Source: an uncultured virus (IMG/VR IMGVR_UViG_3300045256_000415)
Lineage: Duplodnaviria; Heunggongvirae; Uroviricota; Caudoviricetes
Virus record (IMG/VR): IMGVR_UViG_3300045256_000415
Strand: one strand, 5' to 3'
DNA: 64,000 bases
In this document: one piece after another, positions 4,064 to 44,991 of the stretch
How the letters are laid out: each line of letters opens with the position of its first letter
How positions within the stretch are numbered: the stretch's first letter is position 1
Notes under the pieces: model-generated
Database searches by the model: none
The model's input: only the letters and a program-made list of their open reading frames with translations
What the model was told of the DNA's origin: nothing
Program-made: the position numbers and the translations under genes

Positions 4064-4084
4064 CTCCGGAAACCGAAGATGTAT

Positions 4085-4113
4085 ATTTTATCAAAAGTCT
4101 TTCACTTTGTCAA
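4085..4113 (-). promoter_or_regulatory. Near-consensus sigma70 promoter for the 4063 endonuclease gene
   Basis: TTGACA (4113-4108), 17-nt spacer, TAAAAT (4090-4085). Confidence 0.8.
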
Positions 4114-16918: not shown

Positions 16919-18556
16919 ATGAACCAGTTAGCGGAAACCCTTAACCCGAAGGACACCGCCGGACTCCGGCGGTTTTTCCAGACTTACGGTCATCTCTCAA
17001 CAAACGATCAGGCCCAGATCGCGAACGTCTCCGCAAAGACAATCCGCCGATTCAAGAAAAGAATCGGAATCGCCGGAAAAGTCACAAACGCCAAACCACC
17101 CAAGAGCACCACTACTCCAAGTCTCCCTACAGTCACCGCCCCACTCGACTGGCGGCACGATAAAGCATGGCTGGAGAAAATGGTCCAAATCTACAACGTC
17201 TGCCAACTGGCTCGGATCGTCGGGTTGTCTCGCAGTACCATACGCCCAATCTTGAAGCGGCACAAGCTCAAGTGCAAGACACTCAAAGAGGCGACCCGCT
17301 CCAAGAACAAGTACTGCAACCATGCATGGTGCCACCAGAATTATGTCATCCGCGGACTAAGCCAACAGAAATGTGCGAATCTGGCAGGAATTAGCCAGCA
17401 AACCTTCAGCGATTGGCTAAACCGCTTCAAGATCCCTGTTCGGGATAACGAGCAGGCCCAAACGGGCCGAAAAGCAATTACCCTCTGGGAGAAGGACCTC
17501 ATCGCCAAACTCCGCCAGCAGGAGACGGTGAGGCGAGTATACGTCCGCGAGGGCTACATTCACGTCCGCTACAAGAACTACTTCTGGGAGAACTACTACA
17601 CCAAGGCAGTGCCGCACCCCAAGCGGCCTTACACCTATTTCAAAATCACCGATGCTAACTCCAAAATCAATAAGGTGCCGCTGGTCTACCCAGAATATGG
17701 CGTCGATCTAGAAGGGAAAGCACTACACCCCGCCCACATCTGCCTGAGTCGGGCCGATCTGGACACAGCGTCGTTGATAGAGAAGCGTCTGGCCATCCAC
17801 GAATATGCCCGGCAGATCGTGAGCCGCGGTTGGGTCTGGCCTTCCTATCCGGAGACGGTCCTACAAGAGGACTTCAACAGGGTCGAGAACTTCGAGCTTG
17901 CCAAGTATCTTGAGAATGGCGGATTCACGGCTCTCCCAAAAGGGCTGACCTCGCCGCCGGGCCGTAAGCTGATGATGCACTTTTTCGATTTCTCTCGATT
18001 CTGGGATATCCTGTCTAGACCCCAGATGGTAGTGAGGTTCCTGAACACCCTAGAGCAGCGAACTGTCAAGTTCAACTTATTCAACCTACTCCTGACGGTG
18101 GCGGCCAATGAGGGCGGTGTGATCCGTGGCCCAGTCCCGAACATCCCAGATCCGGTGGTCTACGCGGCAATCTTTAGGCGGCTGAAACTACAGGGAACCA
18201 TTCTGGACGTGAAGGTTGGGTTGGGGAATCGGGCGGTAGCAGCGGCGGTGTCCGGTATTCGTTACACTACTGCGGACCCGACGTTCAGCTTCGCTTTGGA
18301 GCGTGGTTTCCCGTTCTTCACTGGTCTTGAGTACGATCCGTACGATGGGCAGCAGGTAGATGCGGCGATTTATGATGAGGGTTTTCGGGCACCGAATATG
18401 GAGTTGGTGTTGCCGTACCTTAAGAAGGCCAAGAAACTACTGGTTTTCTGCCCGTCTACCCACGCACATGAAGTGCGCAAATATAAACCGCAGACGGCAA
18501 TCCGTATTCGGGCCCGCTTTTTCCGGAAGACTCCGGACTACCTGTTTGCGTGGTAA
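16919..18556 (+). CDS. Multi-HTH protein with degenerate DNA methyltransferase-like C-terminus
   Basis: QAQIANVSAKTIRR, QLARIVGLSRSTI, SQQKCANLAGISQQTFSDWL HTHs; PVVYAAIF..ILDVKVGLGNRAVAA SAM-binding-like; no PPY catalytic motif. Confidence 0.6.
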   Translation: MNQLAETLNPKDTAGLRRFFQTYGHLSTNDQAQIANVSAKTIRRFKKRIGIAGKVTNAKPPKSTTTPSLPTVTAPLDWRHDKAWLEKMVQIYNVCQLARIVGLSRSTIRPILKRHKLKCKTLKEATRSKNKYCNHAWCHQNYVIRGLSQQKCANLAGISQQTFSDWLNRFKIPVRDNEQAQTGRKAITLWEKDLIAKLRQQETVRRVYVREGYIHVRYKNYFWENYYTKAVPHPKRPYTYFKITDANSKINKVPLVYPEYGVDLEGKALHPAHICLSRADLDTASLIEKRLAIHEYARQIVSRGWVWPSYPETVLQEDFNRVENFELAKYLENGGFTALPKGLTSPPGRKLMMHFFDFSRFWDILSRPQMVVRFLNTLEQRTVKFNLFNLLLTVAANEGGVIRGPVPNIPDPVVYAAIFRRLKLQGTILDVKVGLGNRAVAAAVSGIRYTTADPTFSFALERGFPFFTGLEYDPYDGQQVDAAIYDEGFRAPNMELVLPYLKKAKKLLVFCPSTHAHEVRKYKPQTAIRIRARFFRKTPDYLFAW

Positions 18557-18590
18557 TGCGAACAAACAAGTAGTCTGGCACACCTACTAC

Positions 18591-18877
18591 ATGAGCACCA
18601 TTAAGAATATTGCCCGAAGTGTAAGGAACCTGACAAAGAGTTCGGGGTCAATAAACGTCGAACTAACGGCCTGCAGGTCTGGTGTAAGGACTATATCAGA
18701 GACTGTCGAAAGTCTTGCCGCTACGAGAAAAGCGTCTACAACGCTCAATATTGCGGAAAGAACAGTGTTAGCTTAGGAATCGTGATTTTGATGTTCAACC
18801 TCGCGAAGCGGAATTGGACGGATGATGATGTGCGAAAGATGGCCCTCGCGTTAGCCGGCTCTGGTGTGGTGTCCTGA
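18591..18877 (+). pseudogene. Internally deleted HNH endonuclease remnant
   Basis: YCPKCK..FGVNKRRTNGLQVWCKD joined to VILMFNLAKRNWTDDDV; frameshift just after the ATG. Confidence 0.65.
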
Positions 18878-18930
18878 TCCCACCCAAAGATAACTCGTAG
18901 ATAATAGCACACTGGAGCGGAGTCAACCAC

Positions 18931-21900
18931 ATGGCACTCAGTCAGATCCCGAAGTACACAACCCTGAAAGACGAGCAGTTTCTGCAAGTCCAAGGACCTG
19001 ACGGGCTCACCACTGGCTACCAGTTCGATGCCCAAACGCGGGCATTGTACTTCAAAGAGTCGCAGGTCATCTTCCCCAGCTTCCACGGTGCTACACACAT
19101 CGCGGAAGACCCGGTACCGGAAGCCACTTGCGACTCCCGCGGCCTCATGTCGGCCGACGACAAGTGCAAACTCGACGCCCTACTCCAGACCCGCATCGGC
19201 GTACTCGGCTTCCAGGGTGCTGGTTTCCCCGACGACGGCGGTTGGCTCCAGGGCGACATCATCCTCGCAGCCGGCACCGAGTTCATCAGCCTGGAGCGGA
19301 TCGGCAACGTCGTCCGTTTCACCGTGGACAGCCCGGTGCCATTGAACTGTAGCTGCTTCCTGCCGGGAGCACGAGTGTTGATGCACGACGGCACCACCAA
19401 GGCCATCGAAACTGTCCGCACCGGTGACCTAGTAGTAACCCATAAGGGTCGCGTACGGCGGGTCAAGCAAACGTTCGCGACCCACCACGATGGGCCGGTC
19501 TACCGCTGGAAGGCCGACAAGCACTCCGGCGAGGGTTTCGCAATCACAGGCAACCACCCGGTGCTGGCCCTCAAGCGTGAGCACGCCTTCATGCCCTCCG
19601 GGAAGCCTCGAAAAGGCATCAAGGAACGTCCAGACTGGACGGAGGCACGAGAACTCGGCGTGGGTGACTTGGTGTCACGGAGGCGGTCCCACGGCTTCGT
19701 CGAAGCCGTTCAGACGATTGACCTATTGACCACCCTAGGCGAGGGATTCATTGAGCGTGACGGTCTGGTATTCTCATGTATCAAGGATGGACCAAGGGCT
19801 GGCCAGATCGACGGTCAATCGTATGGGGTGCCACGATTCATACAGGTCAACGATGACCTGCTTGATCTCATCGGCTACTATGCCGCCGATGGTTGTGCCA
19901 GTCGCAAGAACGGTTTACGCTTTACAGTCCACGCTAAAGAGATGAAATTCGGGGATATTGGTGCCGAGATCTGTCGCATTCTCTCGACCCTCTTCAGTCT
20001 GGAACCGAAGATAAACGGGCGGGCTACTCCCAAAACCCGAGATTTGCAGGTCTTCAGCATTCCACTCGTCGAACTATTCAGGAAGTGGTTCGGTGGTAGC
20101 AAGAAGAATAAGCGTTTCCCACAATGGGTAATGCACCTACCTCCCGCCCAACAGGCACGGATAGTGGCGGCCACCTTCCGTGGCGATGGTTACATCACGC
20201 ACACCGCCCGGAACGTCCAGTTCACGATGGGTCTGGCGTGCCGCCACCTGATCGACCAATGCCTGTGGATGGCAGAACGCTGCGGCTGGGAACCCTTCAA
20301 CCCAGAGCCGAAAGTACACGGCCGCCGCATTCGTTACCGTATGATGGTGTCGGCTAGTGCTGCACCCACACTCTGCGATCTCTTGGGTGTGGGACGTGCC
20401 ACCAAGAAACTGTCTCGTAAGTGGCGTGTGGGCGATCGCACCCTCCATCGAATCACCGAGTGGAGTGAAACGCACTACAAGGGTATTGTCTATAACTTCG
20501 AGGTGGACGAGGACAACTCATATGTCGTAGACGGCATCGAGGTGCACAACTGCGAAGAGTACCAACAGATCTTCTGGATTCAGGATGAGACGGACGTGTC
20601 GGCTATCCGACCGCCAACCTGTGGCGGGAAGACGCCGGGGGCCAACGTCTACGGCGAGGTCAAGTTCTACCTGTTCCCTGAATCCACCCTGGTCGACCCG
20701 AACAATCCGGCCTCAACCCTGAACAAGAAGGACAACTACCCGGCATTCATCTTCAAGCGGTACGATGACTCACTCGTGCCGGGCACCGGCGAACTGGAGA
20801 TCATTCTCAAGCGGAATTCCACCAACAAGCGACAGACGGAGATTGGCTGGGCATTTACCCCCGGTGCCGCTGGCGTGGCTCAGTGCGTCTGGTTCATGGG
20901 TCGCGACAACGACGGCAACCAAATCCGTTTCGACCTGGAGCCGAATGCCGAACCGGGCTTGCTAGGGTCGCTTCTGTATAAGGGCCACCTCATCACCAAG
21001 CAGATGGCGGTGATCGTCGGTTACACCCCGACGATCCTGTCCACCAACCAGTACACCGTCCGTCGTTGGGACGTGGACAACGCCAAGCCCATCGGTGATC
21101 CGTTCACGGCGAAGAACGTTTGGCAATATGCCAACCCAGAGAACCCGCTATCTGGCAAGAACCCCAAGACCCTTCTGCTCGATTCTACGGTGGACCTCCT
21201 GCCTATCGGGTCACTGGTGGACTTGTGGTCCTTCAAGGTGGGTGAAGTGGCCGGCGATCCGATCCGTCGCCACTACTTCTCCAAGAAGCCGACCCTCAAC
21301 CCCAATCACATCTGGACCTGGGTGGGCCAGGTGCAGTTCGGGGACGTGGCTATCGCCCGTGAAGAGGTGCTGGCCGGAGAGGGTTCGGAGGATAAGAACT
21401 CGGCGGTCCAGGTATCGGCTCTCCGCGACTTCGAGCGGAGTCTCTGGGGGCTTACCGGACAAGACGATCCGCTGGTGTCCTTCGACATCGCTTTGACTGC
21501 TGGTACGGAAGCCGCTGATATCAGCTATCAGCACCGGGCGGTGCTCGACACGACCATACCGGCTCTGAAGGTGGTGGCGGCTACAGACACGCCAGACGAC
21601 TTCTCGGAGCGGCCGGTCTGGCTGTGGAACCGCAAGGCCCTGTGCAATGCCCTGATCCGGGCGGATATCGGGCGGCCGACGTCCAGTGCCTTCGTCCCGT
21701 ACGACATCGTGCTACGGTCACCAATCGACGAGTACACCTGCAAGTACATGCGGATTGTCAAAAAGGGGATTGTCAACGGCCTCCACTACATTCGGGTGGC
21801 CGGGGTCCACTTCCACGACATGCCAGCATTCGGGACGGTGCGGGTGCTGTCGCCGTCTAGCAATCAGAATCTGGTGTACAACTACAATCGGAAGCTGGTC

Positions 21901-22653
21901 TTCCCGGCCATCCTCGGCCAGGAGTTCGTGGGGACCGCGGGAACGGTCGAGACTGGTGGCACCGAGCCAACTGGAGGCTACGAGGCTATCATCCAGGAAG
22001 ACTCACTCGACACCCTGGTCCTGGTCGGCGGGGCCGAGAATAACGTCGAATATCCGGGGCAGGTTGGCGATATCGTCGAACTACTGCACCAGGAGTACAA
22101 CAGCACGGTCGTCCGGGTCGAATTCTCCTACAACTCCTCGACGGGGTTGGTGGAGGTACAGTTCAAAGTGGGGACGCTGGACATGTCCCTGCCTTACGAA
22201 GAGGATGTGATCGCGGACGACGCCGACGATTACGTCCGGGGTCTGGCTCCGGGCTATGCCGTCAGTGCGGTGTACTCGCAGTCGGCTCCGTTCTCCGGCG
22301 TGGGTCCGCAACCGGATGCTTCGCCTGAGGGCTTCGTGGTCTACGACGGCGGGGCTCAGGTGGGTGGCACGCTACCGGAATACTGGAACACCTTGGAAGT
22401 TATGCTCCGGGACAATCAGGTCTGGATCTGGTGGAACCGTCTGCTGATTCCACCATCCCCCACGCTGTCTCAGGGTCTGCCGACGCCGGTAACTATCGAC
22501 ACGCCTTACTTCCCGATCGAACAGGACGCCACGCGGCAGTTCGGTAAGGTCGGGATGAGGTTGTGGCCGGGGGCTACGGTGCGGCGATTCGACGTTCGCA
22601 CCCAGATCACCCTGTTCAACGAATTCGTTTACGGACAACTCGAAGTGTCTTGA
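18931..22653 (+). CDS. Large putative virion (tail/baseplate) protein interrupted by an intein
   Basis: 1240 aa; ATCDSRGLMSADDKCKLD fibre-type motif shared with 35826 and 37352 ORFs; CAAAGATA upstream. Confidence 0.7.
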   Translation: MALSQIPKYTTLKDEQFLQVQGPDGLTTGYQFDAQTRALYFKESQVIFPSFHGATHIAEDPVPEATCDSRGLMSADDKCKLDALLQTRIGVLGFQGAGFPDDGGWLQGDIILAAGTEFISLERIGNVVRFTVDSPVPLNCSCFLPGARVLMHDGTTKAIETVRTGDLVVTHKGRVRRVKQTFATHHDGPVYRWKADKHSGEGFAITGNHPVLALKREHAFMPSGKPRKGIKERPDWTEARELGVGDLVSRRRSHGFVEAVQTIDLLTTLGEGFIERDGLVFSCIKDGPRAGQIDGQSYGVPRFIQVNDDLLDLIGYYAADGCASRKNGLRFTVHAKEMKFGDIGAEICRILSTLFSLEPKINGRATPKTRDLQVFSIPLVELFRKWFGGSKKNKRFPQWVMHLPPAQQARIVAATFRGDGYITHTARNVQFTMGLACRHLIDQCLWMAERCGWEPFNPEPKVHGRRIRYRMMVSASAAPTLCDLLGVGRATKKLSRKWRVGDRTLHRITEWSETHYKGIVYNFEVDEDNSYVVDGIEVHNCEEYQQIFWIQDETDVSAIRPPTCGGKTPGANVYGEVKFYLFPESTLVDPNNPASTLNKKDNYPAFIFKRYDDSLVPGTGELEIILKRNSTNKRQTEIGWAFTPGAAGVAQCVWFMGRDNDGNQIRFDLEPNAEPGLLGSLLYKGHLITKQMAVIVGYTPTILSTNQYTVRRWDVDNAKPIGDPFTAKNVWQYANPENPLSGKNPKTLLLDSTVDLLPIGSLVDLWSFKVGEVAGDPIRRHYFSKKPTLNPNHIWTWVGQVQFGDVAIAREEVLAGEGSEDKNSAVQVSALRDFERSLWGLTGQDDPLVSFDIALTAGTEAADISYQHRAVLDTTIPALKVVAATDTPDDFSERPVWLWNRKALCNALIRADIGRPTSSAFVPYDIVLRSPIDEYTCKYMRIVKKGIVNGLHYIRVAGVHFHDMPAFGTVRVLSPSSNQNLVYNYNRKLVFPAILGQEFVGTAGTVETGGTEPTGGYEAIIQEDSLDTLVLVGGAENNVEYPGQVGDIVELLHQEYNSTVVRVEFSYNSSTGLVEVQFKVGTLDMSLPYEEDVIADDADDYVRGLAPGYAVSAVYSQSAPFSGVGPQPDASPEGFVVYDGGAQVGGTLPEYWNTLEVMLRDNQVWIWWNRLLIPPSPTLSQGLPTPVTIDTPYFPIEQDATRQFGKVGMRLWPGATVRRFDVRTQITLFNEFVYGQLEVS
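19354..20550 (+). mobile_element. LAGLIDADG intein (399 aa)
   Basis: Block A CFLPGARV, block B ITGNHPVL, LIGYYAADG and ATFRGDG, VYNFEVDEDNSYVVDGIEVHN followed by Cys. Confidence 0.95.
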
Positions 22654-22678
22654 CAAAAGTCGTTCTCTGGTTTAAAAT
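22650..22678 (+). promoter_or_regulatory. Near-consensus sigma70 promoter
   Basis: TTGACA-17 nt-TAAAAT, then GAGGA SD and ATG at 22695. Confidence 0.8.
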
Positions 22679-22694
22679 AAAACCAGAGGACAAC

Positions 22695-24182
22695 ATGAAG
22701 CTATGCAAAAATGGCCACTCTATGGGCTCGGATTCGGGCTGTAGAGCCTGTCAAATCTCACGGTATGTCTCAAAAAAGTGGGAAAATCCGACAGCGGCAA
22801 TGTTAGAAAGCACCGCCACCAAAATATCAGGGTTGTCAAGCGAGGCGGCTAAAGTAAAACGAGCAGCTTATTTTTCGTCAGATCTGCATAAACAAAAAGC
22901 TTCCGCCCAAGCACGTCGCCTGGCTGAACATCGTAAACAAAATGGTATCTCATTTCTGCCTAAAAAATGCGATACCAAACCGGAATTGGTGGTAGAATCG
23001 GTACTGAAAACACTTAAATTAGAATACCGTAAGCAAGAACCGGTCGGGCCATATCTATTTGACTTCTACCTGCCAGACGCTAGAACACTTATTGAAGTGG
23101 ATGGTGAGTATTACCATAGCCGCCCAGAAGCGATCGCTAACGATCTAGCCAAAGAAGGATACATTCGTAATCAGCACCCTGGCGTAACAATTATAAGAAT
23201 CACAGAGCTGGACACGATGAAAAAGGGGTACGTAGAAAAGTTCCTACGGCGACAACTGTGCCTGTCAAGCCCGATCCAGCATACCATAGAGTTAGAGTCT
23301 TGTCAAGTCAAAGAATGCGATCTGGTTATTGCCAGCGATTTTTTGGCAAGATATCATTATCTGCCACGCTTTAGGAAGAGTACCAAAGCCGTACATGGCG
23401 TTTATCACCGTGGCGATTTGATTGCTGTCATAATTTATTCTAATCCCAGCTACCAAACCGTGGCTAAAAAGTATGGCTACAAACCTTCTATGGTTATCGA
23501 ACTGGCCAGATTCGTAATAGCTGACGGGTATCACGTCTACAATCTGGCTAGTTGGAGTCTCAGCCGTTCGATCAAACTACTCAAGAATAAATATGGGCTG
23601 ATAGTTAGTTATGCTGACCCACATTTTGGTTTTTCTGGACACATTTATAAGGCGTCCGGTTGGGAAGAAGTGGGCCAAACCCAAGCTAGTTACTACTATC
23701 TCGATCAGACTGGTGCTATTCTACACAAAAAAACTGTGTGGGATCACGCCAAAAAGATGGGAATGCCTGAAACTACTTATGCTACTGCTAATTTTTTACG
23801 GAAAGTTGAATGTGAACCCAAGACGATTTATGTCAGACGGCTCACCAAACTAAGCCCGAAAATCATCTCCCAGGACCAGACTGTTCCAGTTACTTGCCGG
23901 TGTGGTGCGGAAAGCCAAATTAGTAACTCTGCCTACAAGCGAGCCAAAAAGAAACACGGTTGCTGGGTGTGCTTAAGTTGCAGTATCGCAAATGGGTGGA
24001 AAGATGGGAAGTATAACACACGCTCAAGGAGATCGGGAACAAATTTGGATCAATTGGTCACTGTAATCTGCGAATGCGGAACATCCGCAACTATCAAGCA
24101 AAAGTCGCTCAATTACGCCATACGTAAACACAGTGCGTATGTCTGCATGAGTTGTGCTGTTAAAAAGTCGAGGGGCAGTTGA
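22695..24182 (+). CDS. DUF559-like endonuclease fused to Mom-like GNAT domain and C-terminal Zn ribbons
   Basis: YLFDFYLPDARTLIEVDGEYYH; FLARYHYL, IELARF, NLASWSLSRS, IVSYADP..GHIYKASGW; two CxCG..CxxC units; AT-rich. Confidence 0.8.
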   Translation: MKLCKNGHSMGSDSGCRACQISRYVSKKWENPTAAMLESTATKISGLSSEAAKVKRAAYFSSDLHKQKASAQARRLAEHRKQNGISFLPKKCDTKPELVVESVLKTLKLEYRKQEPVGPYLFDFYLPDARTLIEVDGEYYHSRPEAIANDLAKEGYIRNQHPGVTIIRITELDTMKKGYVEKFLRRQLCLSSPIQHTIELESCQVKECDLVIASDFLARYHYLPRFRKSTKAVHGVYHRGDLIAVIIYSNPSYQTVAKKYGYKPSMVIELARFVIADGYHVYNLASWSLSRSIKLLKNKYGLIVSYADPHFGFSGHIYKASGWEEVGQTQASYYYLDQTGAILHKKTVWDHAKKMGMPETTYATANFLRKVECEPKTIYVRRLTKLSPKIISQDQTVPVTCRCGAESQISNSAYKRAKKKHGCWVCLSCSIANGWKDGKYNTRSRRSGTNLDQLVTVICECGTSATIKQKSLNYAIRKHSAYVCMSCAVKKSRGS

Positions 24183-24580
24183 TGAAGGAACTGGCCTCCT
24201 TTGAGTTCCATGGCATTGATGCTCTTCTACCCAGGGAGAGCATCGTGCGTATGGGGAACGACACGGTGAGCATCCGGCTATTTCGACGGATGCGGACCGA
24301 GCCTTTGCCGGGGATGAAGCAGCCACTTCTGAACCATGCGATCATGGGACTGGAGACAGTCCTGGAGATTCTGTTCGAGGGGAAGCCGGCAGCTCGTCAC
24401 CGGTGGAAATTGTGCCGATTGAGGGGGAAGTCAGCGAAAGTGGTACAGAGAGGTGAGACGGACGAGCATGGGATCAGTGGGGATATAGCGGTCGGGTTGT
24501 CGTCACCGCCTCCGCAATTTCTCCTTTTGGTCTATGCTCCGAAGAGGCCCGTGAAGGCCACTCCTGTGGCTTCTTCCTGA
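24179..24580 (+). CDS. Hypothetical protein
   Basis: 133-aa ORF overlapping previous stop; GAGGGG SD. Confidence 0.6.
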   Translation: MMKELASFEFHGIDALLPRESIVRMGNDTVSIRLFRRMRTEPLPGMKQPLLNHAIMGLETVLEILFEGKPAARHRWKLCRLRGKSAKVVQRGETDEHGISGDIAVGLSSPPPQFLLLVYAPKRPVKATPVASS

Positions 24581-24665
24581 CTTGGCTGGTGCTGGCAGGC
24601 CCGAAGGCCGTCTCCGCTGCTAATGGCTCCCGTGCTAAAGGGAGAGCGACGGAAACGGCCTTCGA

Positions 24666-24983
24666 TTATGGAATTCGCCGGATGGTGGCGAGTTGGTGGA
24701 AGTTGGTCGTTTCGAGGCGGTTCTTGGCCTTGATGACTTTGGGGTTGTAGCGGGTGCGGATGTCTTCCGCGGTTGGCGTCTCTTGGTGGCCGAGCCCACT
24801 TGGATTGTGGGTGAATAGTGTGAGTATGAGTGCGGTCGCATCCGGCCCAGAGACCACTTCCGCCTTTAGCTCGATCAGTGGGCTAGTCCCTTGATCTTCT
24901 GGTGGATTGTAGATGCCCACAAGGTTGACTGTGCTTCCTACTGGGGCGTCGGGAACCGTCACTGCTTCGCGGTACCAGATCAT
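24666..24983 (-). CDS. Hypothetical protein
   Basis: Start MIWYRE in ATGA overlap with the upstream gene stop. Confidence 0.55.
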   Translation of the reverse strand: MIWYREAVTVPDAPVGSTVNLVGIYNPPEDQGTSPLIELKAEVVSGPDATALILTLFTHNPSGLGHQETPTAEDIRTRYNPKVIKAKNRLETTNFHQLATIRRIP

Positions 24984-25276
24984 TTCTTTTTTCGCCCTCG
25001 GTTGATGATCTGGTCGGATTCGATCATGCTCTGCGTGATTCGCTCGAACTTCTCGGTGGCGTCGTAGAGAGCGTCGATGACTTGGCCATCGCGTTCGAGC
25101 TTGATCACTCGTGGCAGGATGGTGCCGCCCCGGATCGTGTTGACACACTCCCTGGCGATCCCTTCGGCTTCTTGGGCGGAGTCTCCGATGCCGCCGAAGA
25201 AGACCCCTGCGAGGGCGATGCCGTCATCCTTATCTACGACGATCTTGGCGTACGCCACCATGAACTTGTCCGCCAT
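24980..25276 (-). CDS. Hypothetical protein
   Basis: 98 aa, AAGGGG SD, GC3-rich codons. Confidence 0.7.
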   Translation of the reverse strand: MADKFMVAYAKIVVDKDDGIALAGVFFGGIGDSAQEAEGIARECVNTIRGGTILPRVIKLERDGQVIDALYDATEKFERITQSMIESDQIINRGRKKK

Positions 25277-25353
25277 CGGGTTCCCCCTTTAGCTGAATCC
25301 CACGAGAGAGTAGGGCAGGTGCCTGAATCATAGCTGAATCATTTCTGGGTAGA

Positions 25354-25809
25354 TTACATCGTGCCTGTTGAGCCAAACCCCTTCTCACCCCGTTGGTTGT
25401 ATTCAGGGCTAAACTCATCGACCTCCTGGAATTCTCCATCGTACTGACGGTGGAGGATCACCTGGGCAATGCGCTGCCCCTTCTTGACGTGGTAGGATTC
25501 GCTGCCGAAGTTGATGAGGCTGACCACCACTTCGCCGCAGTACGTAGAGTCGATGATCCCACGGTTCGGCTCGACCCCGATCATCCACAGGCTCGACCGT
25601 CCGTCGATGGTGTAATACCAGCCCGGCGGAGCCGCGATTTTGATACCGGTCTTAACCAGACGTGCTTGACCGGGTGGGATGTCCTTCTCCTCCACAGAGG
25701 AGATGTCGTAGCCGGCATCAGTTGGACGAGCCCGGAACGGCATCTTGGCGTCCGGATGGATTCGCTGGATTTCAAGCCGCACATGAGGCTTGGTGGCAGT
25801 ACCTGTCAT
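25354..25809 (-). CDS. dut: dUTP diphosphatase (trimeric dUTPase)
   Basis: AGYDI, GRSS, GIIDSTYCGEV, RIAQ, RGEKGFGSTG motifs I-V. Confidence 0.95.
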   Translation of the reverse strand: MTGTATKPHVRLEIQRIHPDAKMPFRARPTDAGYDISSVEEKDIPPGQARLVKTGIKIAAPPGWYYTIDGRSSLWMIGVEPNRGIIDSTYCGEVVVSLINFGSESYHVKKGQRIAQVILHRQYDGEFQEVDEFSPEYNQRGEKGFGSTGTM

Positions 25810-25819
25810 AGGCGACACC

Positions 25820-26137
25820 ATGAGTTATTGGAAATATCGGGCTTACGACGCTCAACTCCGCATTCAGGAAGGGGTTGTCATCAGCCCGACAAGCGACGAC
25901 CAACTACCGTATCAAGTCCTCTTGCAGTTGCGACAACAAGGGCTACAAGGCATTGACATCAGACCTATCGACCGAGCAGAGTACAATCGCGAGGTTTATT
26001 TGAGGAAGCTCAAGGAGCGTGGTCAACCCCAATCTCAGTCAGTCTCCTCTCCATCAGCCGTGCCACACTCGTCAATACGTGGCGGGTGGCTGGGTAGGGC
26101 CGTCGTCTCACTCTTCCTCAGAAGAAGAGACGGCTAG
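25820..26137 (+). CDS. Small protein resembling the PilC/GspF N-terminal cytoplasmic segment
   Basis: MSYWKYRAYDAQLRIQEGVV..VLLQLRQQGLQGIDI. Confidence 0.5.
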   Translation: MSYWKYRAYDAQLRIQEGVVISPTSDDQLPYQVLLQLRQQGLQGIDIRPIDRAEYNREVYLRKLKERGQPQSQSVSSPSAVPHSSIRGGWLGRAVVSLFLRRRDG

Positions 26138-26812
26138 ATCGCGGATGACGTTGACCAGATCAGTTGTGATTGTGTCCACAACCCGGTCCAATGGCAAGAT
26201 TGAGTCCACGTATACGATATTCTTCGGACTCACGCTCCGGCTCACCAAAAGTGTCCGCTCTTCCGGGCCAGTCACCAGCCGATCGTATGCCTCTTCAACC
26301 TTGCGGAAGAACTCACTCGGCTTCCGTTCGAAGTGATCCGGGTTCCCTCGCGTGTCCAGCCGCTGCTTCCCAACCTGCCACGGGCACCGCAGCACGTACA
26401 GCCGGTCCATCTTCGGCGGGGTGATGAGTTGGAACAGCCGATCGATGTCGGCTAGATTCAACCCCTCAGCGGTGCCGTACACCAGGGCACTGATGAAGCT
26501 GGAGCGGTCAGCGAAGATGGTGCGACCGGAGGCCAGGGCGGGTTGGAGCTTCTGTTTGATGAAGCTGACGGTATCGACCATGTACAAGATCTGTCTGGAC
26601 AGGCTGTCAATCTTGATTTCGGGGTCGATTGTTTCGGGGTACTTGACGAGTTGGCGAAGGTGCTTGCCGAGCGGCGTGCTGCCGGGGTGGTTGGTCAGTT
26701 CGAGGTCGATCTGCCGGCCAAGCTTCTTGGGGAGGGCTTCAGCTACTGCCTTCATCGTGGTGGATTTACCCGCACCATCGTTGCCCTCGAAAACGACATA
26801 CAGACCACGCAT
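26108..26812 (-). CDS. tmk: Thymidylate kinase
   Basis: VVFEGNDGAGKST, HPGSTPLG, ADRSSFISALVYG, DHFE. Confidence 0.92.
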   Translation of the reverse strand: MRGLYVVFEGNDGAGKSTTMKAVAEALPKKLGRQIDLELTNHPGSTPLGKHLRQLVKYPETIDPEIKIDSLSRQILYMVDTVSFIKQKLQPALASGRTIFADRSSFISALVYGTAEGLNLADIDRLFQLITPPKMDRLYVLRCPWQVGKQRLDTRGNPDHFERKPSEFFRKVEEAYDRLVTGPEERTLLVSRSVSPKNIVYVDSILPLDRVVDTITTDLVNVIRDLAVSSSEEE

Positions 26813-26893
26813 CTGGGGTTCTCTCAGTTATAGCCGGAGGCGTCTACACGCCCGGTCAGGTGTCAAGGACTGTAACGAAGCTTTACCAGCTTC

Positions 26894-27430
26894 TCATTTG
26901 CGAGGGTTCTTGGGGATACACAACAGCTTGTGACAGTCCCACTCAGTCTCCAGGAAGCAGTACTCGCCCTTTACTGCCTTCAGAGCGTTGACCAACTTCC
27001 GGGACTGACCGGCTGCCTTCCACACTGCGGCTTCGTAATCGTGAAAGCGTGGTGGATTGGTAGGCCGCGTACCTGCCCGGAACAACTCCTGGGCTTTCAG
27101 GAGGTCACATCCATGCTCCTTGGCGATCAACCGGAACATCTCCTTGCGGAGATCACCAGCCAACCGCCACAGGTCACGGTCGAGCACCTTCGCCTTCTCA
27201 ACCGCGTCTCCGCTGGTGACGAAATAATCGTTCGGGTTGATCCCATCACGATCCAATCCGTAGTCCGCAGGGTTCACCCACGGAACGTGATCGTTCACCA
27301 CCAGTTCAAATACAGCGGCTGGCGGGTCACTTATTGCATCGCCAATTTTAGGGCACTGCTCGTCTTCGTCCATGTGGCTAACCTCGTAGAGTGAGTATGG
27401 TATATCTACGTAGGGGAGCCTCTGGCTCAT
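26894..27430 (-). CDS. Hypothetical protein
   Basis: 178-aa ORF. Confidence 0.6.
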   Translation of the reverse strand: MSQRLPYVDIPYSLYEVSHMDEDEQCPKIGDAISDPPAAVFELVVNDHVPWVNPADYGLDRDGINPNDYFVTSGDAVEKAKVLDRDLWRLAGDLRKEMFRLIAKEHGCDLLKAQELFRAGTRPTNPPRFHDYEAAVWKAAGQSRKLVNALKAVKGEYCFLETEWDCHKLLCIPKNPRK

Positions 27431-27706
27431 ACACCTTCGATGCCAGAAAGCGTCTCACAGTTCCTTAGGTAGGAACCATGAACTCGATTTTGAACCAACT
27501 TGCTAAATACCACCTACGGCACCAGATACCCGAATCGCACCAACCCAAGACCCAATCCACATCAAGCAGACTCAGCATCCATATCAGGAGATGGTAGAAG
27601 GACTCTGCGACATCGAATGGCGGAAACAGGTCATCGACGATGCCCTGCTCGATCCTGTGGCGAATCACCTACGTCGCCTTCTGGGAGTGGAGCCGGTTGC
27701 GTCCGA

Positions 27707-28039
27707 TCAGTAACTGTGGAAGCTATCTGGCCTTGTCAGCTTCTGGAGGTACTCCAACACAAGCTCCCACTCGCCCGAAGCCGGCAGCACTACCGCCCCA
27801 TCGACCTTAGCCACCACGTCGAAAATCCGCCTGATCCGGTCCACCCTGATCTCCCCCTCTATGGGATGATCACCGGGCCGGTAGAAGACAATGACGATGG
27901 CGTGATCGTAGTTGAAATAATTTCGGACCCGTAGATCTAGGTCCTCGATGTCGTCGAAGAGATGGCTGAGAGCGACATCGCTAGGTTTGTGTCGCACGTC
28001 GAAGATTTCGTGCGTCACTACCTTCGGCAGTTCTTTCAT
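27707..28039 (-). CDS. Hypothetical protein
   Basis: Start MKELPK; CGTATTTGAG motif upstream. Confidence 0.55.
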   Translation of the reverse strand: MKELPKVVTHEIFDVRHKPSDVALSHLFDDIEDLDLRVRNYFNYDHAIVIVFYRPGDHPIEGEIRVDRIRRIFDVVAKVDGAVVLPASGEWELVLEYLQKLTRPDSFHSY

Positions 28040-28135: not shown

Positions 28136-31000
28136 TTACGCCCGTTGCTTCTGCCGACGCTTCTTAGTCATCGTCGCACAGCCTTCGCCACACTCCGCCA
28201 GCAGTTCGAAGGCCCGCTGAGCCACCGGGTAGTTGGTCCGGGCTTCCACCGCCGCACCCCAATTGTGGGGGACGATGCGGCAGGTAACCCCTTCCGCCAC
28301 CAAATGCTCCGCGAACGCCTCGGCGTTGCGTGGGAATCGGAACAGGGCCTTCCCCTCACCCACCATCGGCCCGCGGGCGTTGATGGTGAACAGCGGAATG
28401 TCCTGCTTCATGGCCACCTGACCGTTCGGACCAAAGAAGGTCGTTTCGAAGGTCACATCCGCCGGGTTGTGAAGCTGCAGGATCTCCTCGGCGTCGGCCA
28501 GGGCCTCGGCGAGGTTGTCCCGCTTCGGGGTCCGGCTCTTCTTGAGGAAGGCCGGCTTCCCATCTTTCTTGCCCTTCTCCTTCTTGCCACCGAACGGCGG
28601 GGCCTTCTTGCCACCGAACGGCGGGGCCTTCTTCCCGCCGCCCTTCTCCTCCTTGCCCTTAAGGAAGGCGGGCTTAGCACCTTCCACCACCAGCAGGCTG
28701 AACTGCGTCGTGTACTTGCCAGCACCCAGACCGCGGGCCCCTTCCTGAATCTGCTTCTTGATGTAGGCACCTAGCTTCTGGATATTCTCCTGAACCTGCT
28801 GGGTGGCCGCACCAGTCGCCTGGGGCTGAGCCGGACGAGCCGTCTGACCTGCGGCCTGAGGAGCCGGAGCCGCCGGCCGCGAGGCCGGACGCTGGAACTG
28901 TTGCGGAGCCGCGGCCGGACGAGCACCAGGGGCCGCGTTGGGAACCGCACCAGCGGTCGGTTGTGCCGTCATCGTCCCCGGAGTACCAGCCACCGCACTC
29001 TCACTCATCGATTGACCGGACAGCTTCTTCTCAGTGCCGGATAGCCACAGGTCGCTGCCGATCCCGTCGTCCCCGGACTTGGCCATCGCCTTGCCGTTCT
29101 GGGACTTCCCAAGCAGATTCTTGTCGCCATGGGTGGTCATCTCGGTGGGCTGCTTCGGCAGGTTCTCCTTCGGGCCGTCGCCCCCACCCAGCTTGGTCCC
29201 TTCCGGCTTGTTCATCGCCTCGTTTTCGACGAGGGGGTTGAAACCTGGGAACTTCCGCATCAGCCCTTCGAGGGTCGCCTGCACCTTGGTCGGGCAGGTC
29301 CGGGCGTTGACCCGACCGGCATGGTACGACCAGGAGTAGTTCAGGGCTTCAGCCAGATCCCGCGTCTTGGCCTTGGGGTTCCGCTCGATGAGGCTCCGGG
29401 CCGACTCCATGAAGTTCTTCAGGCACTCGATGATACCGGGGCCATTCTCGATAACCCGACGCCGCGACTCCATCGGCGGAGGCGACAGTGGGACGTCGTT
29501 GGGGCTGGCTCCGCCGGCCCCCGGCCCGCTCAGCCCGGCCATCGGGTCCATCATCTCGACGCCACACTCTGGGCATTCGGCGTCTTCGCCTTGGTAGCCA
29601 CAGCCGGGGCACTCCATATTGCCTGCTCCACCCAGGCCACCAGCTCCGCCGTCCATGCCCATTTCCAGCCCCGGTCCGACACCACCCGAGTCCATCTCAC
29701 CACCGATGGAGTCCTGGAGTTCGCCACCCATCGGACCTTCGTCCTCTAGGCCATCTAGACCGGATGCACCGCCCAGACCCGGCTCTTCTTCCTGGTCGAA
29801 CATTCCCTCACGGATGGTTCGCTTACCCACGAAAGGGCGGCGATTCTCACCCTCCGTCAGGGGCTCCGCGACCCAATAGGGGCCATTGGCGTCCCGACCT
29901 TCGAAGAACATGTACTCCTGGTTCTCGTTCATCAGGCTCAGGAGGGACGACTCGTCGATCACCACGCCGGCACCATGGGCGTCCAGGAGGTCCTGGAAAT
30001 CCTCAACGCAGACGGCGGAGGCGGTGCGGGCGTAGCTGTTGAACAGCCCCTGCACGTCGAACTCCTCGCCCATCAGCCGGGCCATGTTGTTCGGGCTCCA
30101 CTCCTTGCTTTCGCCGACGTGCCCAAGCTGCGGGCCGTCCGTGCCGGTGATCGGCCCGTCGGAGGGCATACCAGGACCTTCAGTGTGGGTCCAGGTGTCA
30201 GCCCCCGGCCCGTGGCCTTGCGGCAGGGTGCCGCCGTCAGACCAGCGGTCGCCGCCGAACGGCTCGGCCACGCCGGACCCGGTGTTCTTCTGCGGAGTGG
30301 TGAGGTTCAGGTCGCGAATCTTCTTCTGGTGGCCGTCGTTGGGCTCGCCGTGGGTGCTCTTGTGGCCGCCCTGCGACTTGTGCTCCGCGCCGTCGTCATC
30401 GACGTCGCACATGGCCGCCGTCTCGTTGTGGTCGCGGGGCCATTCCTTCCCGGCACCGGTCAACTCGGTGTCGTAGCTGCCCACGGTGTCCTGGGTGGGA
30501 GCACGTTCGGCGACACCCTTGCCAGCCGGCTTGGACATCTGGTACTCACCGGGATTGTAACCGGCTCCCTTGAAAGGGGGCTGCCACTCGTTCAGCGTTC
30601 GGCGGGTGTTCCTAACGCTCTCCATCTGAGGCGACGACCGACGCAGTATTAATTTTCCAGCACCGTATTCTTCGACTTCGAACCCCGCCCTCCGGACTTT
30701 CCGGAAGACTTGGTGGTATTCTCTGCTACGAGTGATGGCCATCAGTTCGCCGAGATCGACAACGGCTTCGTCATCGTCTCCCAGCAAAGCATCTAGCTCG
30801 GTTGCGAGGCCGTAGTTCGATCCCATTCCGTAATCACGTGGATCGCTAAATCCCGGCTCAAAGGCTTCGTTCTTAACGTTCATACCACCATCTCCAGTAA
30901 CGTCTTTGTTTTGACGTCTTTTCTTTTTGAAAAGACTTAAAGCCGCCGGTGCGATGGTGATCGCCCCGGTGCCCACGAATGATTCCGTGTGAGTTTCCAC
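28136..31000 (-). CDS. Large low-complexity protein, putative prohead core/internal head protein
   Basis: 954 aa, G/E/P-rich, many xxE sites (HTES, QMES, TLNE, LTEG, IREG, LVEN, MSES), CPGC..CPEC, KKAPPFGG x2. Confidence 0.7.
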   Translation of the reverse strand: METHTESFVGTGAITIAPAALSLFKKKRRQNKDVTGDGGMNVKNEAFEPGFSDPRDYGMGSNYGLATELDALLGDDDEAVVDLGELMAITRSREYHQVFRKVRRAGFEVEEYGAGKLILRRSSPQMESVRNTRRTLNEWQPPFKGAGYNPGEYQMSKPAGKGVAERAPTQDTVGSYDTELTGAGKEWPRDHNETAAMCDVDDDGAEHKSQGGHKSTHGEPNDGHQKKIRDLNLTTPQKNTGSGVAEPFGGDRWSDGGTLPQGHGPGADTWTHTEGPGMPSDGPITGTDGPQLGHVGESKEWSPNNMARLMGEEFDVQGLFNSYARTASAVCVEDFQDLLDAHGAGVVIDESSLLSLMNENQEYMFFEGRDANGPYWVAEPLTEGENRRPFVGKRTIREGMFDQEEEPGLGGASGLDGLEDEGPMGGELQDSIGGEMDSGGVGPGLEMGMDGGAGGLGGAGNMECPGCGYQGEDAECPECGVEMMDPMAGLSGPGAGGASPNDVPLSPPPMESRRRVIENGPGIIECLKNFMESARSLIERNPKAKTRDLAEALNYSWSYHAGRVNARTCPTKVQATLEGLMRKFPGFNPLVENEAMNKPEGTKLGGGDGPKENLPKQPTEMTTHGDKNLLGKSQNGKAMAKSGDDGIGSDLWLSGTEKKLSGQSMSESAVAGTPGTMTAQPTAGAVPNAAPGARPAAAPQQFQRPASRPAAPAPQAAGQTARPAQPQATGAATQQVQENIQKLGAYIKKQIQEGARGLGAGKYTTQFSLLVVEGAKPAFLKGKEEKGGGKKAPPFGGKKAPPFGGKKEKGKKDGKPAFLKKSRTPKRDNLAEALADAEEILQLHNPADVTFETTFFGPNGQVAMKQDIPLFTINARGPMVGEGKALFRFPRNAEAFAEHLVAEGVTCRIVPHNWGAAVEARTNYPVAQRAFELLAECGEGCATMTKKRRQKQRA

Positions 31001-31025
31001 GGTAATGTTTGCTCCGAATTAATCC

Positions 31026-31262
31026 TTAGAAACTCACCGAGTACCATTGCATCCGCGTATCAGAATGATGCCTCTTAGCGTGATTGACCCACTGGCAAAC
31101 TTTGTTGGCTGTGGTTTGATCCAACTTTTTGGTCGCGGTCGATCCGGCCCGCCATTTCCGGACATAAGCATTATGGCAATCAACGCATCGATTGCGATTC
31201 TTCTTAAACGGTCTATCACTACGGCCGCAGTCTCTACAGAATTTCGCTGGTGGCCTCGGCAA
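31026..31262 (-). pseudogene. Internally deleted HNH endonuclease remnant
   Basis: CRDC..CVDC N-terminus joined to VCQWVNHAKRHHSD, which matches the HNH tail of the 31785 protein. Confidence 0.6.
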
Positions 31263-31734
31263 TTATTGCGATAGACCATTTCGACTCTTTGAGGCCATCA
31301 CCGATCGAACCCTGATTATATTTGCTGATTGGCCTACCACCTAGCGGGTTCCCAGCAATGGGGATCTTGGCACGGGACACATCCGGAGCGTCCGCCGGAG
31401 ACGGCCCCAGCCCTAACCCCACCTCTGAGGTCTGCGGGGCTACGGTCATGTTCGTCAAAGAGTCCCCATTGGCTCTCGCTGGGTCCCCACGTGACGCAAC
31501 CAGTTGAGGAGGGCTCGGTTGATTGACAGCCCGCTGGTTGATCGGCTGCTCCGCACTCAACGCCGGAGCCTGCCCAAACGACACACTCTCCAGAAGCCCA
31601 AGAAGATCCTCAGCAAGCTCGTCTAATTCGTTTAACGTACCTTCTGGGCGTTTCCCTTTCTCTTTACGTACAACTTCTGTTTGACCAAGCTTATTGACAC
31701 GCACAATTATTTCACGACGGCTAGTGGTTCCCAT
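31234..31734 (-). CDS. Hypothetical protein, possible head-internal
   Basis: 166 aa; LLES, LKES motifs. Confidence 0.6.
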   Translation of the reverse strand: MGTTSRREIIVRVNKLGQTEVVRKEKGKRPEGTLNELDELAEDLLGLLESVSFGQAPALSAEQPINQRAVNQPSPPQLVASRGDPARANGDSLTNMTVAPQTSEVGLGLGPSPADAPDVSRAKIPIAGNPLGGRPISKYNQGSIGDGLKESKWSIAIIAEATSEIL

Positions 31735-31784
31735 GTAAGTATCTTGTCACGAACTCCATCTAAAACTACAACAACAACAACAAA

Positions 31785-32669
31785 TTGCGGAGAATACCCA
31801 TGATTTGCAAATGTGGACAGCCAAAACAACGACGACCATCAGGCAAATTGGTATGTCGTCGTTGCGTGCGGGAAAGACAGTTGAAATATCGACTAGCAAA
31901 CCCAGAGAAAGTACGACAATGGGAAATAAATTATCGTAACACACACGCGAATGAGCTAATAGAGAGAGTTAGAACCAGACGCCAAAGCAGCCACAAATTA
32001 TGGCTGATGGCAAAACTGACAACCATCAGGGCTCGGCGGTCTATAGATTGTACTATCACAATAGACGATCTCCTTGAATTGTGGGACGTGCAGAAGGGTC
32101 TATGCCGACACACCAAATTACCGATGACCACCAAAGAACACGATTATACAGCAGCAAGCGTTGATAGAATTGATTCAACACGTGGTTACACACGAGACAA
32201 CATCCAACTCGTGTGTAAGGCAATCAACTTAGGCAAGAAAAATTTCAAAGACAGCCGAATCGCTGAACTGATCGCGGGGTTACATGGCACACCAATCGCA
32301 GCACCACTACAGTATCGCACAGAGAAACGATATAGAAGATACCAAAAATCGCCCAAGCATTTTTTACAACATAAACTAAACATTTTACGCAGAAATGACA
32401 AGCATAAGGTTACAGTGTCATTAACGGAATTAGAGAAGAAATGGGTTGGAGTATGCTATGTAACACAATTACCAATTTTCCCGATTTTACACGACCCATT
32501 ATCAGCAAGTCTCGATAGAATCGATTCAAACCGTCCATATGACTCATCAAATACAATCATAACTTGCCAGTGGGCCAACTTGGCTAGAAACCATGGTGAT
32601 TTTGATGGCTTCATTAATTTCATAAGAACCATCAGAGCTAATTCACAACCAAACAACAACATCAGCTAA
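31785..32669 (+). CDS. Tandem-domain HNH-type homing endonuclease
   Basis: Two copies of C..T.LP..ASxDRIDS.R.Y..N..C..N; AT-rich; antisense to neighbours. Confidence 0.85.
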   Translation: MRRIPMICKCGQPKQRRPSGKLVCRRCVRERQLKYRLANPEKVRQWEINYRNTHANELIERVRTRRQSSHKLWLMAKLTTIRARRSIDCTITIDDLLELWDVQKGLCRHTKLPMTTKEHDYTAASVDRIDSTRGYTRDNIQLVCKAINLGKKNFKDSRIAELIAGLHGTPIAAPLQYRTEKRYRRYQKSPKHFLQHKLNILRRNDKHKVTVSLTELEKKWVGVCYVTQLPIFPILHDPLSASLDRIDSNRPYDSSNTIITCQWANLARNHGDFDGFINFIRTIRANSQPNNNIS

Positions 32670-32675
32670 CTTTGG

Positions 32676-33233
32676 TCAAAAACCCGTCTTCAACCGCCAA
32701 GCAGCTATTTGCCAGTTCTTCTGGGGGATCTTATTCACCAGTTGAGCATCGGACCGGTCCAGATACTCTACGTATGCCTTCCCGTCTACAATCACAAAGT
32801 CGCTCTTCAGCTTGTCCAACAGGAACTCCCGCACCCGCCGGTCCAGATCTCCACCTTCGAAAACCTGCCGCCGTGGATAAGTCAGAATCTGTGGGTTGTA
32901 GTACGGGAATATGGTTCCGCCCTGACCAAGCTTCGGAACCGCCACCGGCTCAGCCTTATCCACAATCTTCGGCGGCTGAGATTGCTGCTCCTTTACAATC
33001 ATATGTGGATAATGCTTCGAAAGGAACTCAAAAAGCTTATCCACTGCTCCCGGCATCCGCTCAAACTCCTTGAGCAGTTCTACCATCAGATCCTTGTTTT
33101 GGTTACAACCACGAGATTCTTGGAGCCGCCGCATAAACTTGCGATAAACGGCGGCATCGAGATGGAACAGCCACGCCTGCCACGACGGGGAGGTTGACAG
33201 GCTGCAGAACTTATCGACTTTCACTTTGAGCAT
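32676..33233 (-). CDS. Hypothetical protein
   Basis: 185-aa ORF in structural-gene strand. Confidence 0.6.
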   Translation of the reverse strand: MLKVKVDKFCSLSTSPSWQAWLFHLDAAVYRKFMRRLQESRGCNQNKDLMVELLKEFERMPGAVDKLFEFLSKHYPHMIVKEQQSQPPKIVDKAEPVAVPKLGQGGTIFPYYNPQILTYPRRQVFEGGDLDRRVREFLLDKLKSDFVIVDGKAYVEYLDRSDAQLVNKIPQKNWQIAAWRLKTGF

Positions 33234-43046: not shown

Positions 43047-43217
43047 CTATATCTTTCCTACCTTTTTCGGGTTGTAAATCCGATGGGTCCACCAAATCGC
43101 AATGCGATCTCCGTCCCGATCGTGCTGTAATTCCTCACGGTCGGACAACTAGGCAGTCTCTGATCGCCTCAGTCACCATACGGCTTAAATACAGCAAATT
43201 TAGGATAGGGGGCTGAC

Positions 43218-44933: not shown

Positions 44934-44991
44934 AAACGTATGGGAACCATGAACTCGTCGCTTTTCAGGTGCCTGACGATAATCGAGGTCA

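Follow-up and report, generated by a model that had tools for sequence, protein, structure and literature searches.

A Hef-type homing endonuclease gene with a Mom-like domain at the junction of two translationally coupled genes in an uncultured phage

A 64,000-nucleotide stretch of DNA from an uncultured virus of the Caudoviricetes (IMG/VR record IMGVR_UViG_3300045256_000415; hereafter the window) contains, at 22695-24182 on the plus strand, a gene that open reading frame (ORF), domain and family searches assign to the Hef-type homing endonucleases. An initial annotation, made from the sequence alone, had singled out this ORF, and the reported ORF is a real and correctly described gene. Its 495-aa product, P0001, is a new Hef-type homing endonuclease, in which DNA-binding Zn ribbons follow a Mom-like domain of unusual similarity to Mom. 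The cassette, which comprises the ORF and a leader of ~40 nt, is inserted precisely where two translationally coupled genes of a large phage meet. On its left is a conserved, intein-bearing gene (18931-22653, plus strand), whose 3' end is the constant left neighbour of the hef orthologs and the candidate target region. On its right is a gene at 24182-24580 (plus strand), whose ATG shares one base with the hef stop codon (TGATG); in relatives with an empty site, this downstream gene overlaps the stop of the upstream gene as ATGA.

The maximal ORF (22563-24182) opens with GTG at 22563 and thereby overlaps the upstream gene. The start is best set at the ATG at 22695, with the Shine-Dalgarno sequence GAGG (22686-22689) 5 nt ahead of it, and the resulting N-terminus, MKLCK..GH...C..C, is common to 8 of the 12 aligned members of the subfamily. 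One database holds an identical protein, for which the gene call uses a later start and gives 460 aa. The stop codon is TGA at 24180-24182. As stated initially, the gene is AT-rich, with a GC fraction of 0.447 versus 0.563 in the window and 0.57-0.60 in the flanks.

P0001 is built from several modules, all encoded on the plus strand. An N-terminal Zn knuckle (C4, H8, C16 and C19; 22704-22751), recognized from its Cys/His pattern, the alignment and the structure model, is followed by a helical region seen in the model (residues 20-90; 22752-22964). Next come a Vsr-like, or EDxHD, nuclease domain (E97, D123, D136, H141, D150 and K153; 22965-23264), supported by Pfam, a PDB-sequence search and alignments, and a Mom-family GNAT domain that includes a counterpart of the Mom helix-turn-helix-like insertion (H221, Y222, R272, S286, D308, H310 and Y318; 23280-23864). 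The protein ends in two Zn ribbon repeats of the CxC...CxxC type. Repeat 1 (C401, C403, C426 and C429; 23880-24002) is supported by Cys pattern, alignment and model, and repeat 2 (C459, C461, C484 and C487; 24051-24176) by Cys pattern and alignment; relatives bear one, two or three such repeats. The fusion of a nuclease to a Mom-like domain proposed in the initial annotation was thus recovered with both of its parts (Pfam Vsr, DUF559 and Mom), and the motifs it named are present at H221-Y222-L223, E269-L-A-R-F273, S305-Y-A-D-P309 and G315.IYKASGW323. Its count of two Zn ribbons holds for the C-terminal pair (residues 401-429 and 459-487), but the Cys/His clusters total three.

The Mom-like domain gives the highest Pfam score. 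Pfam Mom (PF25680) matches residues 204-366 with an E-value of 1e-23 and 84.5 bits (cut-off 27.1). The nuclease matches are marginal: Pfam Vsr (PF03852) covers residues 92-143 at 27.2 bits against a cut-off of 27, and DUF559 scores 24.2 bits against 20.6. The Pfam REase_MTES_1575 match is below its cut-off, and NCBIfam gave only weak vsr and DUF559 matches, the former far under its cut-off. In the PDB-sequence search, the top match was Mu Mom (8bv8, E 4.9e-5), with weak matches to the DUF559-like structure 3hrl and to the nuclease domain of I-Bth0305I (3r3p, E 0.48). An AlphaFold2 model built from a 64-sequence alignment is confident (predicted local distance difference test score, pLDDT, 89; predicted template modelling score, pTM, 0.66). 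Its top Foldseek matches are both chains of 8bv8 (E 6e-11 and 1.4e-10; target TM-score 0.61-0.65), and ordinary GNAT acetyltransferases rank below them. A two-copy (homodimer) complex prediction for P0001 scored 0.00 and gave no verdict.

The 64-sequence alignment consists of P0001, 8 subfamily members and 55 of 150 listed cluster representatives, mostly top-scoring ones plus a spread of lower scorers. The EDxHD motif was defined from E25, D51, H64, H69 and D97 of Vsr in the motif description of Taylor 2011 (PMC3239194), and the corresponding residues of P0001 are E97, D123, D136, H141 and D150. E97, D123, H141 and D150 are invariant across the 12-sequence subfamily. In the 64-sequence alignment, D123, E134, H141 and D150 are each found in 63 of the 64 relatives and K153 in all 64; E97 is retained in 39.

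For the Mom-like domain, the best guide is the enzyme of phage Mu. Mom moves glycine from Gly-tRNA(Gly) onto adenine N6, and the mutational part of the same work (PMC13219725) reports R111 and S124 as essential, greatly reduced activity for D149A, undetectable activity in vivo for R151A and a drastic drop for H58A, Y59A, Y159A, W48A and W181A. According to the same part, W48 is needed for both the dimer and activity, and Mu Mom requires a helix-turn-helix-like insertion at residues ~175-209 (PMC13219725). We mapped these residues through the 241-aa Mu Mom protein. Six of the seven active-site residues are retained in P0001 (H58 as H221, Y59 as Y222, R111 as R272, S124 as S286, D149 as D308 and Y159 as Y318), and all six are invariant in the 12-sequence subfamily. 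The seventh, R151, corresponds to H310, and the two tryptophans also differ (W48 is V211 and W181 is I342). The "apparently intact" Mom of the initial annotation is therefore intact at the six retained positions, but not at R151 or W48.

The same pattern extends across the 64 sequences, all of which match Pfam Mom. H221, Y222, R272, D308 and Y318 are present in every sequence, and at S286, 56 sequences have Ser and the other 8 have Thr. The R151 position is occupied by Thr (43), His (8), Ser (4), Ile (2), Met (2) and Gln (1); Arg is absent among these six commonest residues, which cover 60 of the 64 relatives. The W48 column is variable. The counterpart of the insertion aligns to Mu and is modelled as a strand (342-344) and two helices (345-354 and 359-365), with H344 kept in 62 of 64 sequences and K345 and E359 in all. 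The canonical Hefs that we aligned (JC221, IBB_35, Octan and the one at 5790-7274 of the window) have Arg at the R151 position and Asn or Asp at D149. Judging from these alignments, the Mom-like pocket is strongly constrained across the family yet is no copy of that of Mu, and this clade is the closest to Mom among those compared. The resemblance to Mom proposed initially stood up to profile comparison (84.5 bits, with 8bv8 as the top fold match). Acetyl-CoA binding, which the initial annotation had offered as a yardstick of function, is outdated: the substrate of Mom is Gly-tRNA(Gly) and not an acyl-CoA, as stated in the substrate section of PMC13219725, and so that criterion no longer applies.

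Family searches place P0001 among known homing endonucleases. It matches phrog_1384 ("Mom-like", E 1.8e-30) and, across the nuclease and Mom regions, phrog_559 (residues 91-352, E 3.3e-25) and phrog_3339 ("homing endonuclease", residues 42-348, E 9.8e-20). A tblastn search of 50,697 phage records matched 237, all below 60% identity; the matches listed are annotated as Hef, Hef-like homing endonuclease, homing endonuclease or "nuclease/acetyltransferase", and one Campylobacter phage record reads "similar to Hef [Bacteriophage U5]". Among 1.84 billion cluster representatives, 4912 matched at E<=0.001, 614 at <=1e-10 and 186 at <=1e-30. In most of the best 150 of the 4912, the matched module (query residues ~93-383) is C-terminal, behind a variable N-terminal arm, and only ~8 of these 150 match P0001 over nearly its full length. 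Hef-type proteins were assigned to the Vsr-like EDxHD homing endonuclease family in the classification given by Taylor 2011 (PMC3239194), the hef gene of phage U5 cuts nrdB as summarized in a section of PMC2988022, and phage LIMEstone1 has four Hef-like genes (PMC3296691). Fusions of a restriction endonuclease (REase) to Mom in jumbo phages, with a predicted restriction-modification-like role, are described in the relevant part of Iyer 2021 (PMC7824862). Our literature searches found no paper tying the name Hef to Mom, GNAT or acetyltransferase.

The leader of hef contains two apparent control elements. A sigma-70-like promoter, TTGACA-17 nt-TAAAAT (22650-22678, plus strand), matches 11 of 12 consensus positions. 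As the initial annotation had proposed for a promoter belonging to the gene itself, it overlaps the upstream stop codon (22651-22653), and it is the best promoter-like site in the region. Sites with at most one mismatch occur twice in the 64 kb, both strands counted, against 0.19 expected, and 2 of 100 shuffles reach two copies. The second copy (4113-4085, minus strand) lies upstream of a Hef-like paralog at 2798-4063. The other element is a 12-bp hairpin (22662-22691, plus strand; -26.2 kcal/mol, z -6.1, with none of 200 shuffles as stable), in which the -10 hexamer spans the upper stem and the loop, and the 3' arm contains the Shine-Dalgarno GAGG.

Both elements recur in relatives. In L007, a related contig whose Hef is ~76-77% identical, both hexamers are unchanged and the hairpin is kept, with two pairs changed on both sides. 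A 95-99% variant in reads from four runs of one sample has A to G changes at 22682 and 22685 in the 3' arm, which would keep the pairing as G-U (a single contig, depth 4.9). The leader of the paralog at 2798-4063 forms a 14-bp hairpin over GGAG and the first two bases of AUG (z -4.5); unlike in the P0001 leader, its promoter lies upstream of the entire hairpin. We also folded six orthologous leaders. Each has a hairpin within ~12 nt of the assigned start, which abuts or includes the start codon in four of the six, ends 3 nt before it in L007 and is next to an uncertain start in L032; z is below -3 in only two of the six. This combination of promoter and hairpin is documented for I-TevI, I-TevII, I-TevIII, segB and Aeh1 mobE in the section on expression control by Edgell, Gibb and Belfort (PMC2988022), in which long transcripts sequester the ribosome-binding site and late-promoter transcripts lack the inhibitory arm. 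We also rejected the idea that the hairpin is an intrinsic terminator for the upstream gene, because no U-tract follows and a terminator scan does not list it.

The genomic setting of hef was compared with that of other phages. GenBank phages gave no megablast match for positions 18000-28000 of the window. Two IMG/VR contigs, L001 (408 kb) and L002 (146 kb), have the same gene order, with upstream proteins 66-70% identical; both are without the hef gene and without the intein of the upstream protein, and the site instead holds a small ORF that differs between the two. A search of viral contigs with P0001 as the single query gave no confirmed locus, but alignment-based scans did find loci: the scan with the subfamily alignment returned 45, and 13 were examined, namely the full-length relatives and four partial ones. 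In all nine loci with a relative at least 41% identical, hef begins 23-47 nt past the stop of the same upstream gene; a homolog of that gene precedes hef in none of the four more distant relatives (30-35% identical). The upstream gene is only 35-46% identical between distant phages that carry an ortholog, yet the hef site is constant; in closer relatives, the site is cleanly empty. The upstream proteins share a C-terminal ending, ...GQLE(V/L)x, and a by-eye comparison of the last ~40 nt of the gene showed no consistent difference between carriers and Hef-less phages. A search of the ESM Atlas with the intein-free upstream protein gave a best score of 0.80, which is the chance level.

Filled and empty alleles exist side by side. 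With the upstream protein as query, 23 viral loci were recovered, 4 with the ortholog and 19 without, and in L055 and L056 the junction is empty and the flanking genes overlap as ATGA. A maximum-likelihood tree built from the upstream protein requires five gains or losses for the seven carriers, at least four of which are forced by well-supported branches. For two of the carriers, L010 and L061, the sister (L062 and L057, respectively) lacks hef. L010 and L062 are 81-83% identical in DNA, and this identity is broken only by two clean insertions in L010 (3950-5688 and 7641-9223), each holding one Hef-like gene. The first insertion starts 2 nt past the upstream stop and ends a few nt past the hef frame. 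The L010 ortholog has an in-frame stop (~5360) between the first Zn ribbon and two further ribbon repeats, which is due to a sequencing error or else to decay of the DNA-binding tail. The initial suggestion of a selfish homing element fits the discrete cassette, the filled and empty alleles in relatives, the patchy distribution and the membership in the Hef family.

Two side observations concern these loci. The ORF at 18931-22653 is interrupted at 19354-20550 (residues 142-540) by an intein of 399 aa (CFLPGA...VHN|C), in which a LAGLIDADG-like motif occurs. This intein is missing in all the relatives examined (L001, L002, L007, L010 and L032-L035), and thus the gene carries two independent selfish elements. 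A second Hef-like gene lies past the thymidylate kinase gene in relatives, at L007 8583-9407, L010 7675-8589 and L008 5484-6191 (minus strand); tblastn found none in the window, and L062 has none.

Sequence divergence shows that hef is under purifying selection. Compared with L007, hef has a nonsynonymous divergence (pN) of 0.133 and a synonymous divergence (pS) of 0.822, with pN/pS ~0.16; the flanking genes have pN 0.03-0.08 and pS 0.61-0.69. By region, pN is 0.080 in the nuclease, 0.125 in the Mom-like domain and 0.193 in the C-terminal ribbons. Between close phages, Hef identity is well below that of the upstream protein (77% versus 93% for the window and L007, 61% versus 86% for L010 and L061), and between distant hosts the values are 43-52% versus 35-46%. 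Rapid divergence at short range together with a floor at long range suggests exchange between lineages, although this is a soft argument.

Taken together, we consider hef a free-standing homing endonuclease gene of the Hef type and a selfish cassette, with a probability of roughly 80%, and its genomic behaviour supports the homing reading well. The analysis itself shows the domains and motifs, the family membership, the insertion polymorphism and constant site, the purifying selection, and the promoter and hairpin; for cleavage, its target, homing itself, the start of the transcript and what the Mom-like domain does, we infer the following model. During mixed infection, the Vsr-like (EDxHD) nuclease would cut the genome of a relative without hef, within or close to the conserved 3' end of the upstream gene. 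Recombinational repair off the Hef-carrying genome would then copy the cassette into the same junction. The Zn knuckle would supply DNA recognition together with the pair of C-terminal Zn ribbons and the Mom-like domain; the strictly conserved pocket of this last domain would engage a target adenine, most likely a flipped-out one. Expression would be low and probably late. In read-through transcripts from the upstream gene, the ribosome-binding site would be hidden in the 12-bp hairpin; transcripts from the hef promoter would start past the 5' arm of the hairpin, whose loop holds the -10 hexamer, and could be translated.

Several observations weigh against homing, and part of them favour a resident phage nuclease that is no longer mobile, is inherited vertically and repeatedly lost, and serves the phage in host-DNA degradation or exclusion of competitors. 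As few changes as on the real tree are needed in 60 of 500 label shuffles, and the carrier label is neither significantly scattered nor clustered. The nine sequencing runs listed as matching are all of DNA, with no RNA run among them, and the best of them may be the source of this DNA. Read contigs from four runs of one sample contain no hef-skipping joint, that is, no empty allele, and the 95-99% variant in that sample also carries hef across the left junction. The gene is intact and under purifying selection and occupies the same site in highly divergent phages, and its identity roughly tracks that of the hosts at long range, so part of the pattern is accounted for by long vertical residence and repeated loss. 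A resident nuclease is nevertheless improbable as the whole explanation: in pairs of near-identical phages, the cassette is cleanly there in one and missing in the other, Hef divergence at short range is three times that of its neighbours (77% versus 93%; 61% versus 86%) with a long-range floor of 43-52%, a pattern that a single clock fits less well than exchange between lineages does, the L010 copy has an in-frame stop, and the gene is low in GC with several paralogs per genome. Of the control elements, the promoter is a predicted one, recognized by its match to the consensus. Decay does occur in the Hef-like family, because the paralog at 2798-4063 stops inside its Mom-like domain and the L010 ortholog has its stop; that P0001 is itself an inactive remnant is very improbable, given its full length, its complete set of nuclease motif residues and Zn ligands, pN/pS ~0.16 against L007 and a confident fold (pLDDT 89).

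A further point against a purely homing role is that the Mom catalytic residues, five of them found in 64 of 64 sequences, are stricter than plain DNA binding needs. This bears on single-chain cut-and-protect, in which the Mom-like domain would modify adenines of the carrier by means of an aminoacyl-tRNA, like Mu Mom, and the nuclease would cut unmodified DNA of the host, of competitors or of the Hef-less allele; in the last case, the homing element would be immune to itself. The invariant H221, Y222, R272, D308 and Y318, the Ser or Thr at S286 in every sequence, the match of all 64 proteins to Pfam Mom, the fold match to 8bv8 (E 6e-11) and the conserved counterpart of the essential insertion (H344 in 62 of 64, K345 and E359 in 64 of 64) all fit such an enzyme, as do the purifying selection on the domain (pN 0.125) and the prediction published for jumbo-phage REase-Mom fusions in the section concerned of PMC7824862. 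We still regard it as unlikely. The counterpart of Mu R151 is His here, Thr in 43 of 64 relatives and no Arg in 60 of 64, and the R151A mutant had undetectable activity in vivo in the assays described in PMC13219725; W48, needed for dimer and activity, is Val here in a variable column; and the gene behaves like an insertion at a specific site, for which empty alleles exist, rather than like a gene for genome-wide defence. Moreover, Hef of phage U5 reportedly also cut the DNA of its own phage in vitro, in work by Sandegren from 2005. A narrower form, in which an active Mom-like domain would confer self-immunity by placing an aminoacyl-derived group on an adenine of its own site while the same polypeptide cuts the unmodified allele, seems to us slightly more doubtful still. 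If true, it would amount to restriction-modification logic in a single chain, with tRNA-dependent base modification in place of methylation, and the His at the Mu R151 position (Thr being the commonest in the wider clade) would mark a donor or chemistry unlike that of Mu Mom.

The homing endonuclease reading also fits a window in which P0001 is not the only Hef-like protein. Paralog 1 (5790-7274, plus strand; listed TTG start uncertain) is a canonical Hef-like gene (phrog_3339, E 2.4e-77). Paralog 2 (2798-4113, minus strand) is the Hef-like gene whose frame (ORF 2798-4063) ends inside the Mom-like domain and which has its own TTGACA-17-TAAAAT (4113-4085) and hairpin. Beside these paralogs, the product of 1478-2737 (plus strand) has a weak match to the GmrSD N-terminal domain (29.6 bits, under the cut-off).

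Other features were noted elsewhere in the window. A DUF2201 metallopeptidase/VWA-like protein (40141-42744, minus strand) has a central LAGLIDADG_3 match (residues 368-407), probably a second intein. The dUTPase (25354-25821, minus strand) is only 56% identical to its counterpart in L007 (6668-7090), between neighbours that are 87-96% identical and over a gap in DNA homology at 25416-25818; from this comparison, the dut allele looks like an allelic replacement. A 545-aa protein of several helix-turn-helix motifs (16919-18556, plus strand) matches "HNH endonuclease" PHROGs in their DNA-binding parts only and is probably not mobile, because it is kept in place in L001, L002, L007 and L055. Low-GC islands (0.45-0.52) at 31000-33000 and 43000-45000 contain ORFs without a Pfam match, and the ORF at 43218-44933 is also without a PHROG match.

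The gene itself is unremarkable and adds one to the thousands of members of the Hef-type homing endonuclease family. Its components were already in print, in the sections concerned of each source: the REase-Mom fusion (PMC7824862), Hef (PMC2988022) and the Vsr-like nuclease (PMC3239194, 2011). The fusion and the restriction-modification-like idea of the initial annotation are thus not new, as both appear in the published part cited (PMC7824862). The locus offers a test case for the question of what holds a Mom-type active site strictly conserved within a family of homing endonucleases, and the natural filled and empty target alleles (L010/L062, L055 and L056) define substrates for cleavage and modification. 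The paired promoter and hairpin would extend T4-style control of homing endonuclease expression to uncultured large phages.

Among known systems, the Hef gene of U5 and the Hef-like genes (PHROGs 3339 and 559; F-LimIII, VII, VIII and X of LIMEstone1; those of Campylobacter, Acinetobacter, Yersinia and Proteus phages) share with P0001 a Vsr-like nuclease and a Mom-like module. They are likewise free-standing beside a conserved gene, multi-copy per genome and polymorphic for presence or absence. P0001 differs from the listed phage Hef proteins in being only 23-27% identical to them, in having its DNA-binding repeats as Zn ribbons after the Mom-like domain where canonical Hefs have long N-terminal arrays, in its Pfam Mom score (84.5 bits versus 25.7 for IBB_35, 12.4 for Octan and no match at E<=1 for JC221) and in carrying His at the R151 position, where the aligned canonical Hefs have Arg.

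Mu Mom (8bv8) has in common with P0001 the GNAT fold, the Mom-specific insertion and H58, Y59, R111, S124, D149 and Y159. P0001 differs in its fusion to a nuclease and Zn ribbons, in its residues at R151 (His), W48 (Val) and W181 (Ile), and in having no com-like gene. The Mu mom leader is structured, occludes the translation start and is opened by the Com protein; the P0001 leader is similarly structured and covers its translation start.

I-Bth0305I of the EDxHD family (3r3p) has in common with P0001 the catalytic E, D, x, H and D, although the sequence match is weak (E 0.48). Unlike P0001, it is intron-encoded, with N-terminal NUMOD/helix-turn-helix motifs, a C-terminal nuclease and no GNAT domain in the description given by PMC3239194. 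The REase-Mom fusions of Iyer 2021 have the same architecture, the same type of genome and the same cut-and-protect idea in the passage that treats them (PMC7824862). That passage predicts a restriction-modification-like role and contains no Hef or homing framing, whereas the genomics of P0001 are those of a site-specific mobile cassette.

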